Below, one piece after another: positions 3,115 to 17,828 of a DNA stretch of 18,797 nucleotides. The position numbers were made by a program, and so were the translations under genes. This stretch comes from a bacterium UBP1_UBA4771. Lineage in GTDB: Bacteria; Krumholzibacteriota; Krumholzibacteriia; Krumholzibacteriales; Krumholzibacteriaceae. The stretch covers positions 10,489 through 29,285 of the forward strand of contig DHHN01000209.1 in NCBI GenBank assembly GCA_002403295.1, given 5' to 3'. Numbering within the stretch: the stretch's first letter is position 1; the number at the start of each line of letters is the position of its first letter. The notes below the pieces were generated by a model. The model was not told the origin of the DNA and did no database searches. It saw nothing but the letters and a program-made list of their open reading frames with translations.

Positions 3115-3888
3115 TCAGCTGATGCTCCCCTTGACGTACTCGCGCGTCATCGCCTGTTCCGGCTCCTCGAAGATCTTCCCCGCCGGCCCGTGCTCCACGA
3201 GTTCGCCGAGGTACAGGAATATCACGTAGTCGGCGAGACGCTTCGCCTGACGCAGGATATGCGTGACGACGACGATCGTGTACGAGCTCTTCAGCTCCCG
3301 GAAGCGCTCCTCGATGCGCCTGCTCGAGACCGGATCGAGCGCCGAGGTCGGCTCGTCGCAGAGAATGATCTCGGGCTCCACGGCGAGCCCTCTCGCCAGG
3401 CACAGCCGCTGTTGCTGGCCGAGCGACAATTTCGACGCCGGCGCATGCAGCCGGTCCCGCACCTCGTCCCAGAGACCCGATTCCCTGAGCCGGCGCTCGA
3501 CGATCCGGTCGAGCTCGCCGCGCTTCTTCGTCCCGTGGATTCGCGGACCGTAGGCCACGTTGTTATAGATCGACATCGGCAGCGGATACGGCTTTTGCGA
3601 AAGGAGGCCCATCTTTTTCCTGACCCGCGTGACGTCCACGCCGGGCGCGTAGATATTCTCGCCGTCGACGAGCACTTCGCCCGAAACCGCGACGCCGTCG
3701 GCGAGATCGACGAGGCGGTTGAAGGATTTGAGCAGCGTCGTCTTGCCGCAGCCCGACGGCCCGATGATCGCGGTAATCGTGCGCCCCGGTATGTCGACCG
3801 ATATGTTCTTCAGGGCGTGTTCGCGCCCGTAATAAATGTTCAGATTTTTCACTCTGATCGGCGGATCGTGATCCATTGCGCCTCTCAT
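3115..3888 (-). CDS. pstB: Phosphate ABC transporter ATP-binding protein PstB
   Basis: Walker A GPSGCGKTT, ABC signature LSLGQQQRL and Walker B ILCDEPTSALD are present, together with the PstB-typical N-terminus (IRVKNLNIYYG). The listed 530-aa ORF 3115-4707 is an artifactual N-extension. The start ATG at 3888 overlaps the pstA stop (ATGA). 257 aa. Confidence 0.9.
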   Translation of the reverse strand: MRGAMDHDPPIRVKNLNIYYGREHALKNISVDIPGRTITAIIGPSGCGKTTLLKSFNRLVDLADGVAVSGEVLVDGENIYAPGVDVTRVRKKMGLLSQKPYPLPMSIYNNVAYGPRIHGTKKRGELDRIVERRLRESGLWDEVRDRLHAPASKLSLGQQQRLCLARGLAVEPEIILCDEPTSALDPVSSRRIEERFRELKSSYTIVVVTHILRQAKRLADYVIFLYLGELVEHGPAGKIFEEPEQAMTREYVKGSIS

Positions 3889-4736
3889 TTCACGATGTGC
3901 TTCGTGAGATTTCTCGCGAGAACCCTCGAAACGAGGCTGATCGCAAGGACGATCAGCGTGAGAATGAGCGCCGACGCGTAGGCCCGGTTTTGAACCTCGG
4001 GAAACGGAGTCCCGAGCTGATAAAAGATCGCGAGCGGCAGCGTCGCCGCCGGGCGAAGAAGGGACGACGGCACGGCGTCGGTAAAGCCCGCCGTGAACAT
4101 GACGGAGGCCGCGTCCCCGATCCCCCTGCCGAAGGCGATGAGCGTCGCCGTCACGATCCCCGGCACGGCCTGCCGCGCCACGACCTTGAGGGCCGTCTCG
4201 AGCCGCGTCGCGCCGAGGGCGTACGACGCCTCGAAAAGCTCGTGTGGAACGGTCCGGACGACCTCGTCCATGGCCCTGCTCATGATGGGGAGAATGAGGA
4301 GCGCGACGGCGATTATGCCGCCGAGGAGCGACGCCTTGAGCCCGAACAGAAGCATGATGGTGAATCCGAAGGCTCCGTAGACGATCGATGGAACGCCCCA
4401 GAGGACGTCGAGGGAAAACCTCGTGAAGAGCACGAAGCGGGAGCGTTTCTTCGCGTACACGTTGAGATAGAGCACGATGGGGACGCTGAGGAAGAGCGCG
4501 AGCGCCGTTGCTCCGCCGGCGAGATAGAGCGAGCCGACGATCGCGTTCAGAATTCCCCCTTCCTTCCCGAGGTAGTATCCCCCCCTCGGCGTCTGGGTGA
4601 GCATCGCCATGTTCAGGGAGGGCAATCCTTTCGCGAGGATCGTCGCCATTATGAGAAAAAGACTCAGGAAGAGCGCGAAGGCGGCGGCGGCCGCGAGGGT
4701 CTTCCACACGAACTCTTCCACCTTTCTCGCGTCCAA
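3885..4736 (-). CDS. pstA: Phosphate ABC transporter permease PstA
   Basis: C-terminal 285 codons of the listed ORF 3885-5732. It has multiple TM helices and an EAA-like loop (ASYALGATRLETALKVVARQAVPGIV). There is no in-frame ATG near the expected start. I place the start at TTG 4734-4736, 12 nt after AAGGAG, with GTG 4719-4721 as the alternative. The exact start is uncertain. Confidence 0.75.
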   Translation of the reverse strand: MDARKVEEFVWKTLAAAAAFALFLSLFLIMATILAKGLPSLNMAMLTQTPRGGYYLGKEGGILNAIVGSLYLAGGATALALFLSVPIVLYLNVYAKKRSRFVLFTRFSLDVLWGVPSIVYGAFGFTIMLLFGLKASLLGGIIAVALLILPIMSRAMDEVVRTVPHELFEASYALGATRLETALKVVARQAVPGIVTATLIAFGRGIGDAASVMFTAGFTDAVPSSLLRPAATLPLAIFYQLGTPFPEVQNRAYASALILTLIVLAISLVSRVLARNLTKHIVK

Positions 4737-4738
4737 CG

Positions 4739-5626
4739 CTATTGCACGCTCCTTTCGACCCGCAGCAGGATCGCGCGCGCCGCGACGTTGACGAGAAGCA
4801 CCACCATCAAGAGCGCGAGCGCCGCGAGAAGCAGCGCCGAGTCGTACATCGGCACGGAGAGCATCTCGCCGTACTTGTTCGCGATGAGCGCCGGAAGGGG
4901 ATAGGCGGGATCGAATACCGTCTTCGGAACGGCGGCCACGTTGCCGGCGACCATGAGCACGGCCATCGTCTCCCCGAAGGCCCGCGACAATCCGAGGACG
5001 ACGGCGGCAATGACGCCCGGCATCGCCTTGCGCATGACGACGTGCCGTATCGTCTGCCACCGGGTGGCGCCGAGCGCGAGAGACGCCTCTCTCACTTCGT
5101 TCGGGACGGTTTTGAGGACTTCGACCGAAACGTGAACGATGACCGGAAACACCATGACCGCGAGAACGATGCCCGCCGCGAGCACGCAGTAGCCGCTCGA
5201 CGAGACGCCGGCGAGCGGAGCGACGTGATTCTTGATGAGCGGCACGACGACGAGCACTCCCCAGACGCCGAACACGACCGACGGTATGCCGGCGAGGAGA
5301 TCGATGAGCGGGGCGGTCCATTCCCGCAGTCTGCGGGGGGCGTACTCCGCCAGATAGATCGAGGCGAGGAGACAGAGCGGGATCGCGATGGCGACGGCCA
5401 CGGCGGTCACCCACAGCGTGCCCATGATGAACGTGAAGAGCCCGAACTCGCCCCGCAGGGGATGCCATGAGCTCGAAAAGAGGAGCTCCGACAAGGGCTT
5501 CGCCGCGAGTATCGGCCGCGATCTCCCGTATAGTCCGAGGATCATGGCGAAAACGACGAGTCCGGGGACGCCCGCGAGCGCCAGCATGCCCGCGCCGGCG
5601 AGCTTGTCTTTGACGAGCCTGATCAT
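4739..5626 (-). CDS. pstC: Phosphate ABC transporter permease PstC
   Basis: 295 aa, polytopic. The motif LGLSRAFGETMAVLMVAGN matches the PstC GETMAV signature. It starts 6 nt after the pstS stop. Confidence 0.85.
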   Translation of the reverse strand: MIRLVKDKLAGAGMLALAGVPGLVVFAMILGLYGRSRPILAAKPLSELLFSSSWHPLRGEFGLFTFIMGTLWVTAVAVAIAIPLCLLASIYLAEYAPRRLREWTAPLIDLLAGIPSVVFGVWGVLVVVPLIKNHVAPLAGVSSSGYCVLAAGIVLAVMVFPVIVHVSVEVLKTVPNEVREASLALGATRWQTIRHVVMRKAMPGVIAAVVLGLSRAFGETMAVLMVAGNVAAVPKTVFDPAYPLPALIANKYGEMLSVPMYDSALLLAALALLMVVLLVNVAARAILLRVERSVQ

Positions 5627-5632
5627 TGCTTC

Positions 5633-6607
5633 TTACTCTTCGAGCTTCCGCAGCTCTGCCTCGAGCCGCTCCCGGCTCAGGCCCACGTACCCCGCCTCGG
5701 ATACGTACCGTTGCCCGTCGGTCAAAACCCACGTGATGAATTCGATCGCGGCTCGCCGCGCCGGCCTTCCCCGCGAAACGAAGTACAGATCCCTCGCGGG
5801 CGGCGAGGGATAGCGGCCCGAGGCGATCGCCGCGACGAGCGTGTCGCGGTTGCCGTAGAAATCCTCGTGCGGGTCGAGCCGGCCGTTGCCGTCGAGATCG
5901 ATGGGGAGCACCCGCAGCCCGGCGATCGGCCGCTTCGTCGCCGCGTCGTACGCGAAGTTTATATTGTTGAAACCGATCCCCAGGGCGTCCCTCTGTATCG
6001 CCTCAGCCACCCCCGGATCGCCGTACACCCCCACGCCGCGCATGTCATCCTGCTGCTTCCCGAGATACTTCGCCCACGTTTCGGCGGCGCCGCACGCGTC
6101 GGAGCGGGTGTAGACGCGGATGGGGCGCGGAGCGGCGCCCGGAACGACGTCGCTCCAACTCGCGGTCTCGCCCGTCACCCATATGCCGATCAACGATTCC
6201 CGTTTCGCTCCCGCGCGCAGCAGATCCCCGAGGGCCGGATTGTTTTCGCTCACCGTGGGAACGACGGCGTCCACGACCACCGCGACGCACCAGGCCCCCT
6301 TCTCGATCTCGGCCGGATAGATGTCGCGCGAAACGCCGCCGAAATCCGCCACGCCGGCGAGCGCATCCGCCATGCCCTTCCCCGCCCCGCCGGCCGAGAC
6401 ATCGATCCGTATCCTCGGATGGATCGCCTCGAATTCCTCGGCCCACCTGACGGTCATGGGGTAGAGCGCCCACGCGCCCGAGATCGTTATCGTGCCTTCG
6501 AGATCGTTCGAGTCCGATTTCTTATCGTCGCCGCCCCGGCAGCCGGAGCCGGCGAGAACGACGATCGCGAGCAACCCGCAGATCGCGCGCTTCGTTCCAT
6601 CCATCAT
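5633..6607 (-). CDS. pstS: Phosphate-binding protein PstS family, predicted lipoprotein
   Basis: Periplasmic-binding-protein-like sequence with a PstS-type fold. The lipobox is LAGSGC after a hydrophobic h-region. I chose the start at ATG 6607 (MMDGTKRAIC...) because GGGAG lies 6 nt upstream. The listed ORF extends to 6667 through two further in-frame Met codons. Confidence 0.8.
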   Translation of the reverse strand: MMDGTKRAICGLLAIVVLAGSGCRGGDDKKSDSNDLEGTITISGAWALYPMTVRWAEEFEAIHPRIRIDVSAGGAGKGMADALAGVADFGGVSRDIYPAEIEKGAWCVAVVVDAVVPTVSENNPALGDLLRAGAKRESLIGIWVTGETASWSDVVPGAAPRPIRVYTRSDACGAAETWAKYLGKQQDDMRGVGVYGDPGVAEAIQRDALGIGFNNINFAYDAATKRPIAGLRVLPIDLDGNGRLDPHEDFYGNRDTLVAAIASGRYPSPPARDLYFVSRGRPARRAAIEFITWVLTDGQRYVSEAGYVGLSRERLEAELRKLEE

Positions 6608-6689
6608 CCGCTTCTCCCGCGTCGACATATTGCAGCGATGGTAAATCGCGGGGCAGGGGTATTTCAACCACTATCGAAGAGCGGCGGCG

Positions 6690-6738
6690 GGACGCCGCAG
6701 GGACGCCGCAGAATAGGAACGCCGCAGGGACGCCGCAG
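6690..6738. promoter_or_regulatory. Direct-repeat array in the pstS / operon-A divergent intergenic region: 4 copies of the 11-bp unit G(G/A)ACGCCGCAG, arranged as a 27-bp tandem duplication
   Basis: The sequence reads gGACGCCGCAGGGACGCCGCAGAATag then gAACGCCGCAGGGACGCCGCAGAATgc. 11-bp (one helical turn) phased direct repeats are the architecture of OmpR/PhoB-family response-regulator sites. This is not the E. coli Pho-box sequence. Confidence 0.4.
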
Positions 6739-6765
6739 AATGCTGCTGAACGGGCGGGGGGCGTA

Positions 6766-6774
6766 TGGTATAAT
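6766..6774 (+). promoter_or_regulatory. Consensus extended -10 element TGgTATAAT, about 56 nt upstream of the gene A start codon
   Basis: TG-n-TATAAT is read directly at 6766-6774, on the plus strand and oriented toward 6831. The repeat array lies 30-80 bp upstream. There is no good -35 (CTGAAC). Confidence 0.4.
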
Positions 6775-6830
6775 TCATGTTCGGCACGCATCGGATGTCC
6801 GGGGCAATCGCACGCCAAAGGAGCCCTTGC

Positions 6831-9122
6831 ATGAAGAGAACGAAATCGGCCGTCTTCGCGCTGTGCGCGACAGCCGCCGTCGCGGCCTTTCTCGTCGCCT
6901 CGATCAAGCGCGTCCCTCCCGGAAACGAGGCGCTGCGGATTTCGAGGGGGGGACAGCCGCAGATTCTGGGATCGGGCTGGCATTTCGTACGCCCGCTGTC
7001 GGGAGCATTCGCCGTTTATCCCGTCGGCGAGGTCTCCGTGCGATTCCCGCAGGACGGGACCGCCGCCGTGCTCCTCGGGGACGGACGCGAAACGGCGGCC
7101 GCTCTCTCCTTTCGGTTGAAGATCCCCCGCGGCTCGGCGCAAAGCCTGCACGAAATCCTCGGGAGGAACTTCTCCGCCGGCTTCGATCGTATCGTCCGCG
7201 ACGCCGTCGAAATTCGGGCCGCGTCGTGGGAAACCGGCGCCGGGGGAGAGGCGCCCGAGGCCTTCGCTCGAGCCGTCGCCTCGGACCTCGCGGAAAGCCT
7301 CTCCGGCGCGCGCGTCGAAATCCTCGCCGCGAGGGTCGAGTCCTGGGGCGATGCCGCCGGCGAGGCGCCGGCGGCCGAGGCGAACGTCTCCGCGGCGCCC
7401 CTTCGGAAGATCGTCTTCATCGGGGTCGACGCCGGCGACTGGGGAATCATCAATCCCCTGATCAGGGAAGGAAGGCTCCCCAACTTCAAGAAAATCGTCG
7501 AGGGCGGCGCCACGGGCCCCCTTCGATCGATGGATCCGATGATCTCCCCGCTTCTCTGGACGACGATGGCGACGGGCAAGCTCCCCGAGGCGCACGGGAT
7601 CTTGAGCTGCACCGCCGTCGATCCCGCGACCGGGGCGCAGATCCCGATCACGCGGATGTACCGCAAGGTCGACGCCTTTTGGAACATGATGAGCGATTAC
7701 GGGCGGAGCGTCGCCGTCATCGGCTGGCTCGCGACCTATCCCGCCGAGACGATACATGGAACGATGGTCACCGACCGGGTCGGCTACCTCGCGTATGCGG
7801 CGACGCTCGGACAGGGCGACGCGCCCCTTCCCGGCGCCGTCTCCCCCCCCGAGCGCGCGGAAGAGATCAATGGGCTCATCGTTCGAAGCAGGGATGTTTC
7901 CTTCGACGAGATGAAGCGTTTCATGCATGTCGACAAGGCCGAGCTCGAGCGCAGCCGCACCGACCGGTTCGACGCCCACAACCTCGTGAACGACATGATC
8001 CTTATATACGCCACGGCGTCGAGCTATCGCGCGATCGCCCTCCACCTGCTCGAGAAGGATCGTCCGGATTTCCTCGGCGTCTATTTCGAGCTCGTGGACG
8101 CGGCCGGTCATCTATTCATGCCGTTCGCGCCGCCGCGGAGAGAGAGCGTGAGCGAAGAGGACTACCGGAAGTACAAGGACGCGATGACGGAGACCTACGT
8201 GTTTCAGGACCGGATCATCGGCGAGCTGCTCGAGCGGTGCGACGACAATACGGTCGTCATGATCACGAGCGATCACGGCTTCAAGAGCCTCGACGCGAGA
8301 CCCACCGCGGACGCCGGGATCACGGGCGGCCACGCCCTGCAATGGCACAATCCCGAGGGGATCGTCTGTCTCTACGGCCCGGGCATCCGCCGCGGTGGCC
8401 GGATCGAGGGCGCCTCCATCATCGACGTCACGCCGACGATACTCGCGCTCGCGGGGTTCCCGCGCGTCGAGGACATGCCGGGGCGCGTGCTCGGCGAGGC
8501 GTTCGAACCGTCGCTCGCTTCATCCGTCAATCCGGCCTCGGTCGCGACGCTCCAGCGGCGCCGCGCCCCCGAAAGCGCGCCCGTGCCGCGGGGAGGCGCC
8601 CTCGAGGACGCCGAGATGAGAAAGCTCGAGGCCCTGGGCTACATCACGGTCGAGAATCCCGACGCCCTCAACAATCTCGGACAGCGCTACCAGAATCAGG
8701 GCGAGTTCGAAAAGGCGATCGCGGAGTTCAAGAAGGCGCTCGCCCTGCGGCCCAACCACGCGGGAACTCTCAATAACCTCGGCGTATCCTACGGCAGGCT
8801 CAAGCGCTATCCGGAAGCGGAGGAGGCCTTCCTGCGGGCGCTCGAGGTGAAGCCGAAGGATATGTTCGCGATGAACAACCTCGCCGTGCTGTACATGGAG
8901 AGCGGACGGCTCGACCAGGCTCGACGCTACGCCGAGCAGGCGGCCGCGACGGAGCCGAAGTACGCGAACGGGCGCTATTCCCTCGGCGTGATCTACGCGC
9001 ATGCGGGAGAGTTCGACCGGGCGACGAAGGAGTTCGAGGCGGCGCTCGCGATCGAACCGGACAACGCGCGTTTCCGCGCCGCGCTCGAACAGTGCCGGCG
9101 GGATGCGGGCGCCCGGAGATAA
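6831..9122 (+). CDS. Multi-domain membrane protein (763 aa): N-terminal TM anchor, SPFH/band-7-like domain, alkaline-phosphatase-superfamily catalytic domain (type I phosphodiesterase / nucleotide pyrophosphatase-like) and C-terminal TPR repeats
   Basis: Start ATG 6831 with AGGAG 7 nt upstream. The N-terminus MKRTKSAVFALCATAAVAAFLVASIKR is hydrophobic. The following segment (VPPGNEALRISRGG..ILGSGWHF) resembles the HflK/C SPFH entry. AP-superfamily motifs are IGVDAGDWG (metal Asp), ISPLLWTTMATG..HGI (Ser/Thr nucleophile region), FELVDAAGH and ITSDHGF. About 5 TPR units span roughly 8650-9110 (LNNLGQRY.., LNNLGVSYG.., MNNLAVLYM.., RYSLGVIYA..). Confidence 0.8.
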   Translation: MKRTKSAVFALCATAAVAAFLVASIKRVPPGNEALRISRGGQPQILGSGWHFVRPLSGAFAVYPVGEVSVRFPQDGTAAVLLGDGRETAAALSFRLKIPRGSAQSLHEILGRNFSAGFDRIVRDAVEIRAASWETGAGGEAPEAFARAVASDLAESLSGARVEILAARVESWGDAAGEAPAAEANVSAAPLRKIVFIGVDAGDWGIINPLIREGRLPNFKKIVEGGATGPLRSMDPMISPLLWTTMATGKLPEAHGILSCTAVDPATGAQIPITRMYRKVDAFWNMMSDYGRSVAVIGWLATYPAETIHGTMVTDRVGYLAYAATLGQGDAPLPGAVSPPERAEEINGLIVRSRDVSFDEMKRFMHVDKAELERSRTDRFDAHNLVNDMILIYATASSYRAIALHLLEKDRPDFLGVYFELVDAAGHLFMPFAPPRRESVSEEDYRKYKDAMTETYVFQDRIIGELLERCDDNTVVMITSDHGFKSLDARPTADAGITGGHALQWHNPEGIVCLYGPGIRRGGRIEGASIIDVTPTILALAGFPRVEDMPGRVLGEAFEPSLASSVNPASVATLQRRRAPESAPVPRGGALEDAEMRKLEALGYITVENPDALNNLGQRYQNQGEFEKAIAEFKKALALRPNHAGTLNNLGVSYGRLKRYPEAEEAFLRALEVKPKDMFAMNNLAVLYMESGRLDQARRYAEQAAATEPKYANGRYSLGVIYAHAGEFDRATKEFEAALAIEPDNARFRAALEQCRRDAGARR
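6900..7420 (+). other. SPFH/band-7-like domain region of protein A (tentative)
   Basis: Pattern match from memory to the HflC/HflK N-terminal region. No profile search was possible. Confidence 0.35.
8650..9110 (+). other. TPR repeat domain of protein A
   Basis: Repeating approximately 34-aa units are present. They show the W-LG-Y / A-F-A-P TPR signature residues (NLG..Y....EAI..F..AL...P). Confidence 0.7.
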
Positions 9123-9237
9123 AGTCCTTGTGAACGCCGCCGGCGCACGCCATCATAGAGAGTTGCGCATCCTCGTAACGGGCCGCGCAGCGTCATGACG
9201 AGCCGCGAGCCGTTCCGACAGCGGGAGATTGCATGCG

Positions 9238-10413
9238 ATGATACAGGCCCACGGCGGACAATTGGTGAATCGCCTCGCCGGCGAGCACGAACGGGCGGCG
9301 CTCGTCGCGCGCGCCGAGACGCTCCCTTCGATCACGCTCAACCGCAGGGAGGTTTCCGATCTCCACCTCATCGCCGTCGGCGCCATGAGCCCGCTCGAGG
9401 GGTTCATGGTCCGGGACGAATACGAGAGCGTTCTCGACGCCATGCGGTTGCCCCGCGGCCTCCCGTGGACCCTTCCCGTCACCCTGTCGATCAAGGACGC
9501 CGACGCCGCCCGGACGCGCCCGCCGTTCGAGGCGGCGCTCCGCGACGAGCGCGGAGCCGCGCTCGGGGTCATGCGCGTCGACGACGTGTACGAGGTCGAC
9601 CGGGAACGCGAGGCCGAGAAGGTTCTCCTCACGACCGACGGCGCGCATCCCGGCGTTCAATATCTCCGCTCGATCGAGGGCGCGTACGCCGGCGGACCGG
9701 TCACGCTCTTCGAGCGGATGGTCGACCCGCAATTCGAAACGTTCCACCTCGACCCGCGGGAAACGCGGATCCTCTTCAAGACGAAGGGCTGGGAGCGGGT
9801 CGTCGCCTTTCAGACGCGCAATCCGATCCACCGCGCGCACGAGTACCTCCTCAAATGCGCGCTCGAGATGACGGACGGGCTCCTCATCCATCCCATCATG
9901 GGGGAAACGAAATCGGACGACATTCCCGCCGCCGTCCGCATGCTCTGTTACCAGGCGATCGTGAGCGAGTATTTTCCGAAGGACCGGGTGGTTCTCTCGG
10001 TCTTTCCGGCCGCGATGCGTTACGCGGGGCCGCGCGAGGCGATCTTTCACGCGATCCTGAGAAAGAACTACGGCTGCACGCACATGATCATCGGGCGGGA
10101 TCACGCGGGCGTCGGCTCGTACTACGGCACCTATGACGCGCAGCGCATCTTCGACGCGTTCGAGCCGGACGAGCTGGAGATCGTCCCCATGATGTTCGAG
10201 CACGCCTTTTACTGCACGAAGTGCGCGGCGATGAGCTCTCCCAAGACGTGCCCCCACGGGAAGGACGCGCACCTGCAGCTCAGCGGAACGCGCGTTCGCG
10301 AGATGCTCGCGCGGGACGAGGCGCTCCCGCCCGAGTTCACCCGGCGGGAGATCGCCGAGGTGCTCGAACGCCATTATGCCGCGCGCGCCGCGAAGCGCCC
10401 GCACGAATCCTGA
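9238..10413 (+). CDS. sat: Sulfate adenylyltransferase (ATP sulfurylase), homo-oligomeric Sat type
   Basis: The motif QTRNPIHRAHE (the HxxH motif of ATP sulfurylase) is present. A PUA-like N-terminus (MIQAHGGQLVNR) and GRDHAGVG are also present. I chose the start at ATG 9238 because the listed ORF's first codon at 9229 is TTG. The C-terminal motif Cys-x2-Cys-x8-Cys-x-His resembles the Zn site of Thermus-type Sat. Confidence 0.9.
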   Translation: MIQAHGGQLVNRLAGEHERAALVARAETLPSITLNRREVSDLHLIAVGAMSPLEGFMVRDEYESVLDAMRLPRGLPWTLPVTLSIKDADAARTRPPFEAALRDERGAALGVMRVDDVYEVDREREAEKVLLTTDGAHPGVQYLRSIEGAYAGGPVTLFERMVDPQFETFHLDPRETRILFKTKGWERVVAFQTRNPIHRAHEYLLKCALEMTDGLLIHPIMGETKSDDIPAAVRMLCYQAIVSEYFPKDRVVLSVFPAAMRYAGPREAIFHAILRKNYGCTHMIIGRDHAGVGSYYGTYDAQRIFDAFEPDELEIVPMMFEHAFYCTKCAAMSSPKTCPHGKDAHLQLSGTRVREMLARDEALPPEFTRREIAEVLERHYAARAAKRPHES

Positions 10414-10429
10414 GCCGGAGAATGGAGCG

Positions 10430-11821
10430 ATGCCGAAAAAGCTCGCCGTTATCGGTCTCGATTGCCTGACGCCGCAGTTCCTCTACGGCGGCGGGCTCGA
10501 CGGGATGCCCAATTTCAAGCGGCTCATCGAAGGCTCGCTCTGGGGGAATCTCGTCTCGATCGTGCCCCCCATCACGGTTCCCGCGTGGACGTCGATGATG
10601 ACCTCGCAGGATCCCGGCATGCTCGGCATCTACGGTTTCCGCAACCGGAAAAGCTACGCGTACGAAGAGCTCTACACGGTCAACGCGAGCAACGTCAAGG
10701 CCAAGACGGTCTGGAATTACCTCTCGAGAAACCGCCTGCGCTCGATCCTCCTCGGCGTCCCGCAGACGTATCCGCCGATGCCGCTCAATGGCGTTCTCGT
10801 CGCCGACTTTCTCACGCCGGGCAAGGAATCGACGTTCACCTACCCGCCGGGGCTCAAGGAAGAGATCGACCGCGTCGCGGACGGCGAGTACATCATCGAC
10901 GTCAAGGACTTCAGAACCGACGATAAGAAATCGCTCCTCGAGCAGATCTACGTCATGACGGAGCGGCGATTCAAGGTCTTCCGGCACCTTCTCGCCCGCG
11001 AGGATTGGGATTTCGCGATGATGGTCGAGATGGGACCCGACCGGATCCATCACGCGTTCTGGCGGTTCTGCGATCCCTCGCACCGCCTATACGTCAAGGG
11101 GAACGAGTACGAGGACGTCATCCGGCGCTACTACGCCCGTCTCGATCTCGAGATCGGACGGGTGCTCGAGGCGCTTCCGTCCGACGCGTCGGTGATCGTC
11201 GTTTCGGACCACGGCGCCAAGGCGATGCGCGGGGGCATCTGCATAAACGAGTTCTTCATCCGGGAGGGTCTCCTCGCCGTCAAGGAGTATCCGAAACGAC
11301 CCGTCTCCCTCACGCCGGCGATGATCGACTGGCGGAAGACCGCGGCGTGGGGCGAGGGCGGCTACTACGCGCGCGTGTTCCTCAACGTGGCCGGACGCGA
11401 GAGCGAGGGAACGGTGCCGCGCGCCGAATACGAACGCGTCCGCGCCGACGTGAAGCGCCGTCTCGAGGGGCTCGCGGACGAGAACGGAACGAACATCGGC
11501 ACGCGCGTCTTCTATCCCGAGGAGATCTACCGGAGATGCGAAAACATTCCGCCCGATCTCATCGTCTACCTCGGCGATCTCGACTGGCGGAGCGCGGGAA
11601 GCGTGGGACACGGGGCGATCCACATCTTCGAGAACGACACGGGGCCCGACGACGCGAATCACGCGCAGGAGGGGATTTTCATCTGGCACAACCGCGGCGG
11701 CGCGGGACGCGTGACGTCGAGCCCCGCCGGAGACAAGATATCGATCTACGACGTCGCCCCGTCGATCCTCGATTTCTTCTCGATCGAGGTTCCTCCGGAC
11801 ATGATCGGACGGGTGGTATAG
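10430..11821 (+). CDS. Alkaline phosphatase superfamily protein, type I phosphodiesterase / nucleotide pyrophosphatase-like (paralog B, cytosolic, 463 aa)
   Basis: Start ATG 10430 with GGAG 2 nt upstream; the listed ORF begins at 10376. Motifs are LAVIGLDCL (metal Asp), PPITVPAWTSMMTS (nucleophile region), HHAFWRFCDPSH and VVSDHGA. No signal peptide or TM segment is present. Confidence 0.85.
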   Translation: MPKKLAVIGLDCLTPQFLYGGGLDGMPNFKRLIEGSLWGNLVSIVPPITVPAWTSMMTSQDPGMLGIYGFRNRKSYAYEELYTVNASNVKAKTVWNYLSRNRLRSILLGVPQTYPPMPLNGVLVADFLTPGKESTFTYPPGLKEEIDRVADGEYIIDVKDFRTDDKKSLLEQIYVMTERRFKVFRHLLAREDWDFAMMVEMGPDRIHHAFWRFCDPSHRLYVKGNEYEDVIRRYYARLDLEIGRVLEALPSDASVIVVSDHGAKAMRGGICINEFFIREGLLAVKEYPKRPVSLTPAMIDWRKTAAWGEGGYYARVFLNVAGRESEGTVPRAEYERVRADVKRRLEGLADENGTNIGTRVFYPEEIYRRCENIPPDLIVYLGDLDWRSAGSVGHGAIHIFENDTGPDDANHAQEGIFIWHNRGGAGRVTSSPAGDKISIYDVAPSILDFFSIEVPPDMIGRVV

Positions 11822-11868
11822 ATCGCGGGATGCGGCATCGCGAAACGCCGTTTCACAGGGAGATGACA

Positions 11869-12471
11869 ATGAAAGGTTTCACGCTCTGGTTCACCGGCCT
11901 TCCCTGCTCGGGCAAGTCGACGCTGGCGCGGCGCGTTCAGGAGATCCTCCTCGAGCGCGGGATGAACGTCGAGCTCCTCGACGGCGACGAGGTGCGGCAG
12001 AACCTTTGCAAGGGCCTCGGATACTCCAAGGAGGATCGGGACACGAATATCCGGCGCATCGGCTACGTGTGCAAGCTCCTCAGCCGCAACGGCGCGGTCG
12101 CCGTCGCCGCCGCCATCTCCCCGTACCGGGAGATCCGCGAGGAGAATAGACGCGCCATCGCCGCCTACGTCGAGGTCTACGTGAAGGCGCCGATCGAGGT
12201 GCTCGCGAAACGGGACGTCAAGGGGATGTACAAAAAGGCGCTTGCCGGCGAGATAACGAACTTCACCGGCGTCTCCGACCCGTACGAGGAACCCGAGCGC
12301 CCGGAGATCCTGATCGAATCGGACAAGGAAACGGTCGAAGACAGCACCGCGAAGATCATCCGCACGCTCGAAGTCATGGGTCTCATTCCGGGAGCACCCG
12401 CCGAAAGCGAGTATTCACCGGAGGAAGAAGAGAAGATCAAGACCCGGCTCAAGGATTTGGGATACATCTAG
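11869..12471 (+). CDS. cysC: Adenylylsulfate (APS) kinase with a 25-aa acidic C-terminal extension ending in LGYI
   Basis: P-loop WFTGLPCSGKSTLA is present. LDGDEVR.NLCKGLGYSKEDRDTNIRR aligns with E. coli CysC ([27 protein letters not shown]). KGMYKKALAGEITNFTG corresponds to KGLYKKARAGELRNFTG. GGGAG lies 7 nt upstream of ATG 11869. Confidence 0.9.
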   Translation: MKGFTLWFTGLPCSGKSTLARRVQEILLERGMNVELLDGDEVRQNLCKGLGYSKEDRDTNIRRIGYVCKLLSRNGAVAVAAAISPYREIREENRRAIAAYVEVYVKAPIEVLAKRDVKGMYKKALAGEITNFTGVSDPYEEPERPEILIESDKETVEDSTAKIIRTLEVMGLIPGAPAESEYSPEEEEKIKTRLKDLGYI

Positions 12472-12485
12472 AGGGAGCGGGCACG

Positions 12486-13790
12486 CTGCGCACACGGAGG
12501 AAGAAGGTCGCATGCGTCGTCGGTCTCGACGGCGTCCCCTTCTCGTTCATCCGCGGCATGATCGATTCCGGCGTCATGCCGAGGATGAAGGAGATCGTGT
12601 CGCGGGGCCGCATGGCGCCGATGACCGCCTCCCTTCCTGAAATCTCCTCGGTGAGCTGGTCAACGTTCATGACGGGCCTCGATCCCGGCGGCCACGGCAT
12701 CTTCGGCTTCACCGATTTCAAGGATGCGAGCTACGCGCTGCGCTACCCCTCCTTCCGCGACCTCGGGGCGCCCACGATCTGGGACCGGCTCGGCGAACGG
12801 CGGATGAGGAGCGTCGTCATCGATCAGCCCGCCACGTACCCCGCGCGTCCCATTCCCGGCGTTTTGATATCGGGCTTCGTCGCGCTCGACCTCGAGAAGG
12901 CGGTCGCTCCCCGCTCCTACCTCGCCGCACTTCGAGGCATGAACTACGAAATCGACATCGATGCGGCGAAATGCAGGGACAACCCGGACGAGCTCTTCTC
13001 CGCTCTCGGCAAGCGCCTCGCCGAAAGACGCTCCGTCGTCGACGCCCTGTGGGAGAAGGAAGAGTGGAATCTCATGGAGATCGTCGTAACGGGCACCGAC
13101 CGGCTCCACCATTTCATGTGGGACGCCTGCGAGGACGCGAACCATCCCCGCCGCGAGGACGTGCTCGCCTATTACCGCGCGATCGACGATTTTCTGGGGC
13201 ACGTGTACGAGAAGTTCCGCCGCCTCGACGCGGGCGGCAATTTCTTCATGCTCTCCGATCACGGCTTCTGCGCCGCGAAACGAGAGGTGTACGTGAACGC
13301 CGTCCTTCGCGCGGAGGGATTTCTCGATCTCGCGCCCGGCGCATCGTCCCTCGAGGGGATCACGGAGCGCACGAAAGCCTTCGCGCTCGATCCCGCGCGC
13401 ATTTACATCAACCGCGCGGGGCGATTCCCCCGGGGACGCATCGACGAGGCGGACGCGAAGTCCCTGCTCGAGGATCTCGCGGCGATATTCGACGCGCTCG
13501 AGGTCGGGGGAGAGCGGGTCGTGCGGCGGCGGTTCACGGGCCGAGAAGCGTATTCGGGACCCTTCGCCCGCCGCGGCCCGGATCTCGTGCTCGTTCCGCG
13601 AAACGGCTTCGATCTCAAGGGCCGCCCCGGCGCCGCGGAGATATCGGGCGAGAGGCGCTTTCAGGGAATGCACACGTGGGAAGACGCCTTCTTTTTCTCG
13701 CTCGACCCGGCGGCGATCGAAGATCCGAACGATCTCAACATCGTGGACGTCCCGAAAACGATCTTGAGGAGCATCGATGTCGAACCATAG
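12486..13790 (+). CDS. Alkaline phosphatase superfamily protein, PPase/PDE-like (paralog C, cytosolic). The start codon is uncertain; this call is a CTG start with the first ATG at 12558
   Basis: Homology to the paralog N-termini (KKVACVVGLDGVPFSF vs KKLAVIGLDCLTPQF) extends 15-24 codons upstream of the first in-frame ATG. The only start-like in-frame codon upstream is CTG 12486, 8 nt after GAGGGAG. Motifs are ISSVSWSTFMTG..GHGIF, HHFMWDACEDANH and LSDHGF. Confidence 0.7.
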   Translation: MRTRRKKVACVVGLDGVPFSFIRGMIDSGVMPRMKEIVSRGRMAPMTASLPEISSVSWSTFMTGLDPGGHGIFGFTDFKDASYALRYPSFRDLGAPTIWDRLGERRMRSVVIDQPATYPARPIPGVLISGFVALDLEKAVAPRSYLAALRGMNYEIDIDAAKCRDNPDELFSALGKRLAERRSVVDALWEKEEWNLMEIVVTGTDRLHHFMWDACEDANHPRREDVLAYYRAIDDFLGHVYEKFRRLDAGGNFFMLSDHGFCAAKREVYVNAVLRAEGFLDLAPGASSLEGITERTKAFALDPARIYINRAGRFPRGRIDEADAKSLLEDLAAIFDALEVGGERVVRRRFTGREAYSGPFARRGPDLVLVPRNGFDLKGRPGAAEISGERRFQGMHTWEDAFFFSLDPAAIEDPNDLNIVDVPKTILRSIDVEP

Positions 13791-15858
13791 AGGAACGCGC
13801 GCGGTCCGCGTTTCGATATGCGCCATCCTGTGCGCGCTCGGCGCGCCGGCCGCCGCGCACGCCTATATCGGCCCCGGCGCCGGCTTCGCGCTCGTTTCGT
13901 CGTTCCTCTCTTTCGTGCTCGCGTTCTTCGCCGCGTTTCTCGCCCTCTTGACCTTTCCGCTCCGCATGCTCTGGAAGAGGATGAGGCGCAAGCGCGCGCC
14001 GCGGGCGCCGCGCGCGGACAAGGTGATCGTCCTCGGGCTCGACGGCCTCGACCCCGCGATCTGCGAGCGCCTCATGGTCGCCGGCCGACTCCCCAACCTT
14101 TCGCGCCTCGCCGCCGCGGGAACGTTCCGCCGGCTCGGCACCTCGACGCCGGCGATGTCACCCGTCGCGTGGTCCACCTTCAGCACCGGCGTCGACGCCT
14201 CGCGCCACGGCATCTTCGATTTTCTCGCGCGGGATCCGAACACGTACCTCCCCGTCCTTTCCTCGAGCCGCGTCACCGCGTCGAAGCGGTTTCTGCGGCT
14301 CGGCCCCTTTCGGCTGCCGCTCGGGAAAGGAAGCGTCCGCTTTCTCCGAAAGAGCACGAGCGTCTGGAAGGTGCTCGGCGAATACGGAATCTTCAGCACC
14401 GTTCTCCGGGTCCCGATCACCTTTCCCCCGGAGCCATTGAACGGCGTCATGCTCTCCGGCATGTGCGCGCCCGATCTGCGCGGGACGATGGGATCGTTCA
14501 CGTATTTCCGCCGGGGCGAATCGGGCGGCAGGATCGGCGGCATGGTGATCGCCCTCGAGGAGAAGGACGGCGTCCTTCGGGCGTCCCTTCCCGGCCCGGA
14601 GAGCCCGGTCGCCCGCGAAACCTTGAAGCTCCCCCTCGAGATCCGCGTCGACGCGAAGAGGCGGGGCGCCGAGATTCGCGTGTCCGGCGCGCGTTTTTTC
14701 CTCCCCGAGCGGGCGTACTCGCCGTGGATCCGCCTCGCCTTCAAGGCCGCGCCGGGCGTCACGCTCCATGGCATCGCGCGGTTTTTCATCACGCGCCTCG
14801 ACGGCGACTTCGGGCTCTACGTATCGCCGATCCACATCGATCCAGAAAAACCCGCCATGCCGGTCTCCTACCCCGCGTTCTACTCGGTGTATCTCGCCAA
14901 ACGCCTCGGCGGGCCGTTCGGAACGCTCGGCCTCGCCGAGGACACGTGGGCGCTGAACGAGGGGGTTCTCGACGAAGAGGCCTTTATCGCGCAGGCGTAT
15001 CTCTTCCACCGCGAGCGCGAGGCGATGTTCCTCCACACGCTGCGCACGCAGAAGAAGGGCCTCGTCGCGTGCGTCTTCGATCTCAGCGACCGCATGCAAC
15101 ACATGTTCTTCCGGTATCTCGCGGATGACCTCGACCCCGGCGCGGCGGCGCCGGAGCGCCGCGAAACGCTCGACGAGATGTACCGCGAGATGGACGCGCT
15201 CGTCGGCAAGACGTCGGCGTTCGTCGACGGCCGGACGGCGCTCTTCGTGATCTCGGATCACGGCTTCAAGGCATTCAGGCGCGGCGTCGATCTCAACGTC
15301 TGGCTCATGCGGAACGGATATCTCGCGCTGCGCGCCGACGCGCGCGGTGACGAATTCCTCCGCGACGTCGATTGGTCGAAGACGCGGGCCTACGCGCTCG
15401 GGCTCGGGGGCGTGTATCTCAACATGAAGGGACGCGAGCGGCACGGAACGGTCGAGGCATCGGAGGCCCCCATGCTGAAAGAAGAGATCGCATCGAAGCT
15501 CCTCGCGCTCGGGGATGAGGGCGGCGGGGCGCCGGTCGTGAGCCGCGTGTTCGACACCGCTCGGGACTTCACGGGCCCGTACCGCGCGGAGGGACCGGAT
15601 CTCATCGTGGGACTCGCGGAAGGCTACCGGATTTCCTGGGACTGCGCGAGGGGGCTCGTGCAGGACGCCGTCATCGAGGATAACGAGAAGAGCTGGAGCG
15701 GCGATCACTGCATCGATCCCGCGCTCGTTCCCGGCGTTCTCTTTTCGAACATGCGCGTCGAGGCAATCGACCCGAATATCGCGGACATCGCGCCGACCAT
15801 TCTCGGGCTCTTCGGCATCGATCCGCCGCGATACATGACGGGGAGGGATCTCCTGTGA
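13777..15858 (+). CDS. Alkaline phosphatase superfamily protein, PPase/PDE-like (paralog D, 693 aa) with an N-terminal two-helix membrane hairpin and polybasic stretch
   Basis: ATG 13777 lies 5 nt after GAGGAG and overlaps the gene C 3' end by 14 nt. The N-terminus has two hydrophobic segments (VSICAILCALGAPAAAHA; FALVSSFLSFVLAFFAAFLALLTF) followed by RMLWKRMRRKRAPRAPRADK. Motifs are VIVLGLDGL, MSPVAWSTFSTG..RHGIF, ISDHGF and WSGDHC. Confidence 0.85.
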   Translation: MSNHRGTRAVRVSICAILCALGAPAAAHAYIGPGAGFALVSSFLSFVLAFFAAFLALLTFPLRMLWKRMRRKRAPRAPRADKVIVLGLDGLDPAICERLMVAGRLPNLSRLAAAGTFRRLGTSTPAMSPVAWSTFSTGVDASRHGIFDFLARDPNTYLPVLSSSRVTASKRFLRLGPFRLPLGKGSVRFLRKSTSVWKVLGEYGIFSTVLRVPITFPPEPLNGVMLSGMCAPDLRGTMGSFTYFRRGESGGRIGGMVIALEEKDGVLRASLPGPESPVARETLKLPLEIRVDAKRRGAEIRVSGARFFLPERAYSPWIRLAFKAAPGVTLHGIARFFITRLDGDFGLYVSPIHIDPEKPAMPVSYPAFYSVYLAKRLGGPFGTLGLAEDTWALNEGVLDEEAFIAQAYLFHREREAMFLHTLRTQKKGLVACVFDLSDRMQHMFFRYLADDLDPGAAAPERRETLDEMYREMDALVGKTSAFVDGRTALFVISDHGFKAFRRGVDLNVWLMRNGYLALRADARGDEFLRDVDWSKTRAYALGLGGVYLNMKGRERHGTVEASEAPMLKEEIASKLLALGDEGGGAPVVSRVFDTARDFTGPYRAEGPDLIVGLAEGYRISWDCARGLVQDAVIEDNEKSWSGDHCIDPALVPGVLFSNMRVEAIDPNIADIAPTILGLFGIDPPRYMTGRDLL

Positions 15859-17828
15859 GAATCGCGCACCTCAAGGTTCTGCTCGCGGGCGTCGCGTTGC
15901 TCGCGATCGACGGCGGCGCTTTTCCGGCGGGGACGGCCGGCGCCTCGCCGCGCGAGCGAAGCGTCATCATTCTCGGAATCGACGGAATGGATCCCATTCT
16001 GCTCGAACGTTTCATCGAAAAGGGACGCATGCCGGTTTTCGAAAAGCTCGTGCGGGAGCAATCGTATTCGCTTCTCGAGACCTCCATCCCTCCCCAGAGC
16101 CCCGTCGCGTGGTCGAACTTCATCACCGGCATGGATCCCGGCGGGCACGGCATCTTCGACTACATCGGGAGGGATCTCGAGACGTACCGGCCCTCCTTCT
16201 CGCTCACGCACGTCGACGAGCCGGGACGCGTGCTGCGCGTCGGCGGCTGGGTGATTCCCGTCTCCGCCGGCAAGGCGACTCTTCTCAGGCGGGGGAAGGC
16301 CTTCTGGCAGATACTCGACGAGCACGGCGTGCCATACACGATATCGAGAGTGCCGTCCAACTTTCCGCCCGTGCCGTGCAAGGGCCGGACGCTCTCGGGC
16401 CTCGGAACGCCCGATCTCGCGGGAAGCTATGGAACGTTTTCGTATTTCACGAACGATCCCGCCTTCGCCGGCCTCGAGGTGAGCGGCGGCTCGATATATC
16501 CCGTCGCCGTCGAGAACGGCGCGGTCTCCGCCGTTCTCATCGGTCCGCCGAACACGCTGAGAACGAGCGCCCCCCTTCTCGAAGCGCCCTTCATCGTGCA
16601 TGCCGACGCCGCGCGCGGCGCCGCGAAGATCGTCGTGGGAAAGACGGAGATGATCCTCGCGGTCGGTGAATGGAGTCCGTGGACGGAGGTCTCGTTCGAC
16701 CTCATCGGCCCGCTCCACACGCTCAAGGGCATCTGCCGTTTCTATCTGAAATCGATCGATCCGCACTTCGGCCTCTACGTGACGCCGCTCAACATCCACC
16801 CCGCGCATCCCGCGCTCCCGATCTCCACGCCATCGAGGTACGCGGCCGAGCTCTCCCGCGCGATCGGACACTTCTACACGCAGGGAAACCCCGAGGACAC
16901 GAAGGCGCTCGAGTGGGGCGTCTTCGACGACGCGGAGTTCATCCATCAGGCGAGACTCGTTCTCGGCGAGCAGCGGCGGATGCTCGACGCGGCCCTCGAC
17001 GAGCATGACGGCGGCTTGCTCTTCTTTTACGTTTCGACGCTCGATCTCTGCCAGCACATGCTGTGGAGAAACATGGACCCCGCCCACCCCGCTCATTTCG
17101 AAGAGGCCGCGGCGCACAAGGACGAAATCGAAAACCTCTACGTCGAAATGGACCGCCTCGTCGCGCACGTGCTCGAGCGGATCCCGCCCGATGCCGCGTT
17201 CATCATCATGTCGGACCACGGCTTTTCTCCTTACTACCGGAAATTCAACCTCAACACGTGGCTCCTCGAGAACGGCTATCTCGAGCTCGTCGATCCGGCC
17301 GCGATGGAGCGCTCGCGGCTCTTCGAAAACGTCCACTGGAGAAAAACGAAGGCGTACGGCGTGGGCTTCAACGGACTCTACGTGAACCTTCGCGGACGCG
17401 AGGGCAAGGGGATCGTGCGCGCGGGCGCCGAATGCGAAGAGCTGCTCCGCGAAATCGGCGACAAGCTCCTCGCCGCGAAGGATCCCGAAACGGGGGCCTC
17501 GCCGATTCGGAGCGTGTATCGCGCGAGCGAGATCTATCACGGCGCGGAAGCGCGGAACGCCCCCGACCTCGTCATCGGATACCGGCGGGGGTATCGCTGC
17601 AGCGATCAATCGGTGCTCGGAGATTTCACGCGGGACGTCTTCGGTTGGAACATGGACAAATGGAGCGGCGATCACTGCATGGCCGCGGAGGAGGTTCCCG
17701 GCATCCTCATCGCGAACAGGAAACTGCGCGTGAGCGATCCGCGGCTCGGCGATTTCGCGGCCACGATCCTCTCGCTCTTCGGCATCGACGGCTCGAAGGC
17801 GCCGGCATCGAGCCGCTCGATCTTCTAA
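15855..17828 (+). CDS. Alkaline phosphatase superfamily protein, PPase/PDE-like (paralog E, 657 aa) with a predicted Sec signal peptide
   Basis: GTG start at 15855, in a GTGA overlap with the gene D stop. GGGAGGG lies 7 nt upstream. The N-terminus MRIAHLKVLLAGVALLAIDGGAFPAGTAGA-SP is signal-like. Motifs are VIILGIDGM, SPVAWSNFITG..GHGIF, MSDHGF and WSGDHC. It is closest in sequence to paralog D. Confidence 0.85.
   Translation: MRIAHLKVLLAGVALLAIDGGAFPAGTAGASPRERSVIILGIDGMDPILLERFIEKGRMPVFEKLVREQSYSLLETSIPPQSPVAWSNFITGMDPGGHGIFDYIGRDLETYRPSFSLTHVDEPGRVLRVGGWVIPVSAGKATLLRRGKAFWQILDEHGVPYTISRVPSNFPPVPCKGRTLSGLGTPDLAGSYGTFSYFTNDPAFAGLEVSGGSIYPVAVENGAVSAVLIGPPNTLRTSAPLLEAPFIVHADAARGAAKIVVGKTEMILAVGEWSPWTEVSFDLIGPLHTLKGICRFYLKSIDPHFGLYVTPLNIHPAHPALPISTPSRYAAELSRAIGHFYTQGNPEDTKALEWGVFDDAEFIHQARLVLGEQRRMLDAALDEHDGGLLFFYVSTLDLCQHMLWRNMDPAHPAHFEEAAAHKDEIENLYVEMDRLVAHVLERIPPDAAFIIMSDHGFSPYYRKFNLNTWLLENGYLELVDPAAMERSRLFENVHWRKTKAYGVGFNGLYVNLRGREGKGIVRAGAECEELLREIGDKLLAAKDPETGASPIRSVYRASEIYHGAEARNAPDLVIGYRRGYRCSDQSVLGDFTRDVFGWNMDKWSGDHCMAAEEVPGILIANRKLRVSDPRLGDFAATILSLFGIDGSKAPASSRSIF

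Follow-up and report, generated by a model that had tools for sequence, protein, structure and literature searches.

The intergenic region at positions 6608-6830 (223 bp) of the window, by which the whole analysed stretch of 18,797 bp is meant, separates a pst-type operon on the minus strand from a sulfate-activation operon on the plus strand in an uncultured bacterium. It contains a compact array of nearly identical direct repeats, and the question raised by this locus is whether the array is an operator through which one regulator controls both operons or whether it has another origin and another role.

The minus-strand operon pstS-pstC-pstA-pstB (3115-6607) is headed by a pstS-like gene for a PstS-family substrate-binding lipoprotein (5633-6607, minus strand). 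PstC and PstA score above the NCBIfam equivalog cut-offs and PstB falls short by 2 bits, so that the possibility of a transporter which is not Pst-type was rejected and the term "Pst-type" is kept here. The binding protein is a weak PstS-family match (97.8 bits versus a PstS cut-off of 206.6); because it lies far under the PstS cut-offs while PstC and PstA pass theirs, its ligand may perhaps be other than plain orthophosphate. In L007 and L009, two of the related loci discussed below, the next gene after pstB belongs to the TauE/SafE family. The roughly 10 kb past pstB and the 2-3 kb of contig past the end of the plus-strand operon contain no phoB, phoR or phoU gene, and no response-regulator gene was found near the array.

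The first gene of the plus-strand operon (6831-9122, with the ribosome-binding site AAAGGAG at 6817-6823) encodes a 763-aa protein, here called Band7-AlkP-TPR, which consists of an N-terminal membrane anchor, an SPFH/Band7 domain, a PF01663 domain and TPR repeats. PF01663 belongs to the alkaline-phosphatase (AlkP) superfamily and has phosphodiesterase/pyrophosphatase members. Hundreds of full-length homologs of this protein occur in metagenome-assembled genomes labelled Latescibacteria, Krumholzibacteria and Eisenbacteria. Downstream on the same strand are sat (ATP sulfurylase), a PF01663 gene, cysC (APS kinase) and three further PF01663 genes, the operon ending at 17828. This conserved seven-gene operon (6831-17828, plus strand) thus holds five PF01663 paralogs interspersed with ATP sulfurylase and APS kinase, and no NCBIfam model matched the four stand-alone PF01663 proteins.

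The array occupies 6689-6741, with no strand assigned, and is made of two 26/27-bp copies, each reading GGGACGCCGCA GGGACGCCGCA GAAT. Its 11-bp unit, GGACGCCGCAG, is exact at 6690-6700, 6701-6711 and 6728-6738, and the remaining unit, at 6717-6727, is the GAACG variant GAACGCCGCAG with one mismatch. Unit starts at 6690, 6701, 6717 and 6728 give start-to-start steps of 11, 16 and 11 bp, that is, 2 x 27 bp, and the structure is therefore compound, 11 bp being nested inside 27 bp. A repeat search returned two 26-nt copies (6689-6714 and 6716-6741) with 96% identity at 27-nt spacing, and TRF reported 6689-6738 with period 11, 4.1 copies and a score of 55. The 4 x 11-bp (2 x 27-bp) arrangement at 6690-6738 described in the original prediction thus agrees with both the coordinates and TRF, and its phasing at one helical turn stands within each pair (11 bp) and fails between the pairs, where the step is 16 bp and the 27-bp distance (about 2.6 turns) puts them out of helical phase. 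Elsewhere in the 18.8-kb window, GGACGCCGCAG with at most one mismatch has a single match, which lies within a gene at 10467 (1.36 expected in the whole window), and a cluster of four in 49 bp is therefore not a matter of chance. The near identity of the copies points to recent duplication, unlike the degenerate units of selected multi-site operators.

The array is placed between two divergent promoters. On the minus strand, the -35 hexamer TTGAAA (6662-6667) is followed across an 18-nt spacer by a predicted -10 hexamer TACCAT (6638-6643); both are assigned to pstS by promoter scanning together with conservation in relatives, where the -10 reads TACCAT or TACTAT. This TTGAAA-18-TACCAT was the sole sigma-70-like site called by the scanner in 6400-7000 (0.1 expected), and the minus-strand TTGAAA-18-TACYAT was called independently in L162, L007, L009 and L211. 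The -35 block (T)GGTTGAAA is kept in the relatives, reading GATTGAAA in L211. On the plus strand, the extended -10 TGgTATAAT (TGGTATAAT; 6766-6774) matches the consensus and is present as TGnTACAAT in the relatives. A -35-like CTGAAC (6746-6751, plus strand) lies 17 nt before it and is weak, with 3/6 matches; the corresponding hexamer is CTGAAA in L007, L009 and L211 and CTGAAT in L162. The plus-strand promoter of the window was passed over by the scanner on account of the poor CTGAAC. In L007, L009 and L211 it was called as CTGAAA-17-TACAAT with an upstream TG, and L162 reads CTGAAT-17-TACAAT. The transcription start is predicted at about 6780 +/- 2.

With recognisable hexamers at 16-18 nt spacing in orthologous positions, the region is a pair of back-to-back sigma-70-type promoters, predicted from consensus and conservation, whose position is kept in four related species. 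In this respect the original prediction held well: a divergent control region had been proposed, the minus-strand TTGAAA had been suggested as able to serve pstS and now has a predicted, conserved -10 partner, and the extended -10 is where it had been placed. The array lies 22-75 bp upstream of the pstS -35, which is intact and not replaced by it, and the proximal repeat unit adjoins the plus-strand -35 without overlapping it.

Divergence of pstS and the Band7-AlkP-TPR/sat/cysC operon is limited to a narrow clade. Loci without any gene between the two operons (class A) comprise the window species, L162, L007/L008, L009/L010 and L211, and the four related species L162, L007, L009 and L211 served as outgroups for the array; L162 has 80-86% nucleotide identity to the window species. 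More distant Latescibacterota and Krumholzibacteriia homologs were dropped as evidence, since their neighbours and upstream sequence differ and are hence uninformative. The class-A intergenic alignment contains four conserved blocks, namely GATRGTAMATCG (pstS -10), TTTCAAYCA (pstS -35, read on the plus strand), CGCC..AA.GC.GCTGAA and TRTGRTAYAAT. The best-conserved block outside the promoters immediately precedes the plus-strand -35 and takes in the 3' portion of the repeat unit. Each outgroup has a single copy of this box, adjoining the plus-strand -35 on its upstream side (GGGACGCCACAAAAGCAGCTGAAAC in L007, GGGGGCGCCAAGAACGCTGCTGAAAC in L009, GAGACGGCGCCATAACGCTGCTGAAT in L162 and GGAAGCGCCATAAACGCTGCTGAAAA in L211). 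The corresponding ancestral single-copy box and -35 region of the window is 6727-6751 on the plus strand, GGGACGCCGCAGAAT GCTG CTGAAC, with which the relatives share CGCC..AA.GC.GCTGAA. The invariant CGCC and AA sit outside the -35 hexamer, and part of the conservation of the CGCC..AA block in the four outgroup species could stem from closeness to the -35.

The spacing of the promoters is equally informative. From the start of one -35 hexamer to the start of the other there are 46 bp in L007, L009 and L211 (5855/5901, 5867/5913 and 545/591, respectively, with poorly conserved sequence between them) and 41 bp in L162. In the window species the figure is 79 bp with four units and 68 bp with three, values equal to 41 + 38 and 41 + 27, so that the extra DNA is exactly repeat material. 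Single-copy relatives and this arithmetic together indicate that the array was formed once the L162 lineage had branched off. A distance of 46 bp in three species also hints that the spacing of the predicted promoters is itself constrained. The comparison of orthologous pstS upstream regions, which the original prediction had proposed as a check, consequently turned out against a conserved array, one unit being present in L162, L007, L009 and L211.

Variation is found within the window species as well. The 4-unit allele occurs in the window and in contigs from 14 other samples in ENA, Logan, JGI and NCBI (L004, L005, L215, L217, L219-L225, L228, L230 and L232; the re-fetches L216, L218, L229, L231 and L233 were excluded from the count). 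At least four samples (L001, L002, L003/L226 and L227) carry a 3-unit allele; the unit 6690-6700 is missing from it and the third window unit reads GGGACG instead of GGAACG, so that all three units are identical. Across the 18,797 bp, the window and L001 share 99.83% identity; they differ by 21 substitutions and one gap, and this gap is the 11-bp unit. A one-unit indel standing alone in 18.8 kb between strains so similar is the signature of unit-wise slippage. An assembly artefact was rejected, as the 4-unit allele is identical in JGI, ENA, Logan and NCBI assemblies. Both alleles are present in samples of one JGI series, and they are the only two among about 20 assemblies; each is stable across many samples, which argues that the repeat is not hypermutable in the sense of phase variation and gives no sign of rapid switching.

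Two further observations concern these strains. Of the 21 differences that separate the window from L001, five (6718, 6779, 6789, 6812 and 6829) fall in the 223-bp intergenic region (binomial P = 4e-6), four of them in the approximately 50-nt leader of the plus-strand operon and one in the repeat units. The leader SNPs and the repeat allele are freely shuffled by recombination, L220 and L222 being recombinants with the 4-unit array. A structured 5' leader behind this SNP cluster was considered and rejected, as the folds differ by haplotype, the leader is not conserved across species and there is no compensatory pattern. In addition, L232 (GCA_002327475.1, DCWC01000164.1) aligns with the window in three blocks, at 99.4-100% identity. 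At its locus (1-1712) the examined stretch includes 57 Ns, the Band7-AlkP-TPR gene is called short (518 aa) and pstS has no Pfam hit; because of the latter two features, the public annotation of DCWC01000164.1 hides the divergent arrangement.

Taken together, near-identical head-to-tail copies, a strain difference of one whole unit and a single-copy state in the sister species qualify the array as a promoter-region variable tandem repeat, which is a known and ordinary kind of polymorphism. Promoter-associated variable tandem repeats are the subject of two published articles (PMC3899988, PMC12817950). The explanation that we regard as probable, with reasonable though far from full confidence, is that the array arose recently by tandem amplification of one conserved cis-element before the plus-strand -35, and that its copy number tunes one or both operons across strains. 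Replication slippage or unequal pairing most likely produced the array from the single element. The ancestral box, with a GC-rich CGCC core and an A-rich linker, would lie at about -54 to -38 relative to the predicted start; it may serve the plus-strand promoter as an upstream element or as a binding site for an activator. Amplification would add two or three copies of the box, at about -55 to -92, and would shift the divergent pstS promoter 27-38 bp farther off. Through the extra boxes and the displacement of the pstS promoter, the number of units would tune, from strain to strain, how strongly one or both operons are expressed, and the array would not be a fixed four-site operator. For selection the amplification could be neutral.

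A second group of relatives carries a regulator gene at this locus. In class B (L132, L212 and L213) a gene of the Rrf2 family heads the pst operon, just upstream of pstS and on the same strand (minus; 1772-2224 in L212, 1760-2173 in L213 and about 3090-3600 in L132). The best specific NCBIfam matches of these proteins are CymR and IscR, both under the cut-off, and the intergenic regions of class B have the conserved AT-rich motifs GATAGACTAAGTAATGATTATACTA and TTTTCAATTATTATTAGTTGTGTCG. These loci resemble autoregulated divergent promoters of IscR/CymR-like regulators and have the same intergenic position between a pst-type and a Band7-AlkP-TPR/sat operon; unlike them, the window clade has neither an Rrf2 gene here nor the AT-rich motifs, and a search of the window and its closest relatives for an AT-rich, partly palindromic motif overlapping a promoter next to an Rrf2 gene was negative. 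Gene order and motifs in class B suggest Rrf2 control of a Pst-type transporter beside a sulfate-activation operon, an unusual pairing, and the predicted co-transcription of the pst-type operon with an Rrf2 regulator argues against canonical PhoB control of the locus in the wider clade. One of the three, L132 (DATKWS010000070.1), is labelled "Patescibacteria group bacterium"; its Rrf2-pst/Band7-AlkP-TPR-sat-cysC gene order is the same, its amino-acid identity with the window is 56-84%, and its label probably reflects misbinning or misclassification in the public record.

The original prediction had interpreted the 11-bp repeats as head-to-tail sites of a single OmpR/PhoB-family response regulator, possibly phosphate-responsive, that co-regulates the pst and the AlkP/sulfate-activation operons. 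A Pst-type transporter beside AlkP-superfamily genes fits such a phosphate theme, and direct repeats with a period of 10-11 bp are indeed present within each pair. Counted from the predicted plus-strand start, the array would span about -44 to -92, in a manner reminiscent of the tandem OmpR sites that precede ompF; the box adjoins the -35 and is partly conserved; and the window's GCCGCAGAAT and the following GCTGCTGAAC agree at 7/10 positions and could be two half-sites overlapping the -35. However, the distance of 16 bp between units 2 and 3 leaves the pairs out of phase, the architecture is reduced to one unit and no array at the orthologous promoters, unit number differs (3 versus 4) between near-identical strains, and copies so alike look recent rather than like selected, degenerate sites. 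A good pstS -35 is retained at least 22 bp from the array, where a Pho-box-like site would overlap or substitute it, and at the plus-strand promoter an activator should be unnecessary, given the consensus extended -10. The sequence is unlike the E. coli Pho box, as had been stated at the outset: CTGTCATN4CTGTCAT has no match with up to 3 mismatches in the intergenic region, and a literature search for Pho boxes in Latescibacteria returned nothing. The box has no match elsewhere in L001, L228 and L231 (about 32 kb of the window genome), its conserved pattern has no other match among 214 loci, phoB, phoR and phoU are missing from the neighbourhood, and class B has an Rrf2 regulator at the locus instead. 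The lack of recurrence in these 32 kb and the lack of conservation in four related species agree, within that range, with the outcomes that had been named as counting against the idea, and the claim that one OmpR/PhoB-type regulator controls both operons through the array finds no support: such control is unlikely, and a PhoB/OmpR-type operator is weakened rather than refuted as an explanation. A variant, which is distinctly unlikely, is that the box and -35 segment (CGCCnnnRAAY-GCTGCTGAA) is a candidate operator of an undescribed response regulator or other activator coupling phosphate uptake to the sulfate-activation/AlkP operon, and that the amplification of units is adaptive. If true, this would imply, for example, phosphorus sparing through sulfated products, and the 11-bp amplification would be an adaptive strain-level change in the dosage of activator sites and not a neutral repeat.

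At the opposite end is the possibility that the array is a neutral intergenic minisatellite, born of slippage in a weakly constrained spacer, with no effect on expression, and that the conserved block merely reflects the -35. Near-identical copies and the indel polymorphism are what this would produce; the ancestral spacer is poorly conserved beyond the promoter blocks, and the SNP density given above makes the intergenic region the most polymorphic part of the window, which suggests weak constraint. The spacing is nevertheless apparently constrained in the relatives (exactly 46 bp from -35 to -35 in three species and 41 in the fourth), so that a change of 27-38 bp is unlikely to be silent. 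Moreover, the invariant CGCC and AA are not part of the -35 hexamer, and the repeat units contain one SNP versus four in the adjacent 5' UTR. Wholly neutral behaviour is thus possible, but we consider it doubtful. Very little credence is given to an action of the array through nucleic-acid structure, as a G-rich, G-quadruplex-like element or a hairpin, or as a transcribed element. GGG tracts do return at 11-nt intervals on the plus strand, and the scanner flags a weak hairpin with a T-rich tail on the minus strand (6738-6722); yet the loops between the tracts measure 8-13 nt and one tract is just GG, the hairpin needs G-U pairs to form and there is no gene ahead of it to terminate, and the feature is missing from all relatives. 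A search of 6450-6950 against Rfam returned no known RNA family, and the array is probably not transcribed, since it lies upstream of both predicted starts.

Set beside known systems, the array behaves like a promoter-region variable tandem repeat; its likeness to Pho boxes and tandem OmpR sites is confined to periodicity. Promoter or intergenic VNTRs arise via slipped-strand mispairing, examples being the repeats upstream of Neisseria nadA and the MIRU-VNTRs of Mycobacterium tuberculosis. The window array is similar to them in its near-identical head-to-tail units by a promoter, its strain difference in copy number, its single-copy ancestor and its expected effect, namely altered spacing or number of cis-sites. 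It differs from them in its compound structure (11 bp within 27 bp), in having two alleles in about 20 assemblies with no evidence of high-frequency switching, and in its host, which is an uncultured environmental bacterium of the FCB group and not a pathogen under immune selection. In the E. coli pstS promoter, the Pho boxes are PhoB binding sites and replace the -35. The window shares with it direct repeats of 11-bp period upstream of a pst operon, four units of which could hold two dimers; conversely, its sequence is unrelated, its pstS -35 is neither overlapped nor replaced, its orthologs are single-unit, its pairs are out of phase and its neighbourhood is without phoBR or phoU. Upstream of ompF, the tandem OmpR sites F1-F2-F3 are degenerate, conserved and fixed in number. 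The resemblance here is a run of units with a 10-11-bp period at about -40 to -100 from a promoter with a poor -35, whereas the window units are nearly identical, lineage-specific and variable, and their promoter has a consensus extended -10.

The locus illustrates that an array of repeats may be striking and helically phased, and lie in a control region, without being an operator, and that sister species and strains can reveal it as a recent copy-number polymorphism. It also offers a natural allelic series of 1, 3 and 4 units for testing the effects of spacing and site number on tightly packed divergent promoters in an uncultured lineage. The expectation of PhoB control for this pst-type operon is corrected, as related genomes place an Rrf2-type regulator there. 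Beyond the allelic series and the correction of an attractive over-interpretation, the biological stakes are modest.

A metagenome-wide scan for GGACGCCGCAG-N(0-30)-GGACGCCGCAG returned at least 120 loci, which are unrelated and mostly tandem arrays with different periods in GC-rich DNA; among the matches listed, none comes from the window organism. At least about 33 of the listed matches are coding 12-bp repeats that specify four alanine-rich residues. The 12-bp-period array (GGGVCGCCGCAN)n is present in many unrelated metagenome contigs with GC of 0.40-0.69, often at contig ends; examples are L011 7489-7584, L049 10191-10514, L116 8108-8227, L117 8832-8939, L023 1190-1525 and L081 1156-1395, with at least about 27 further loci. 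These arrays share the 11 bases of the window unit because the search pattern demanded them and are unrelated to the window array. Inside open reading frames, they encode ...AAWDAARAAAGDAA... following a conserved N-terminal domain (e.g., MITTTLKRIRDHGPCADGWQKLL...).
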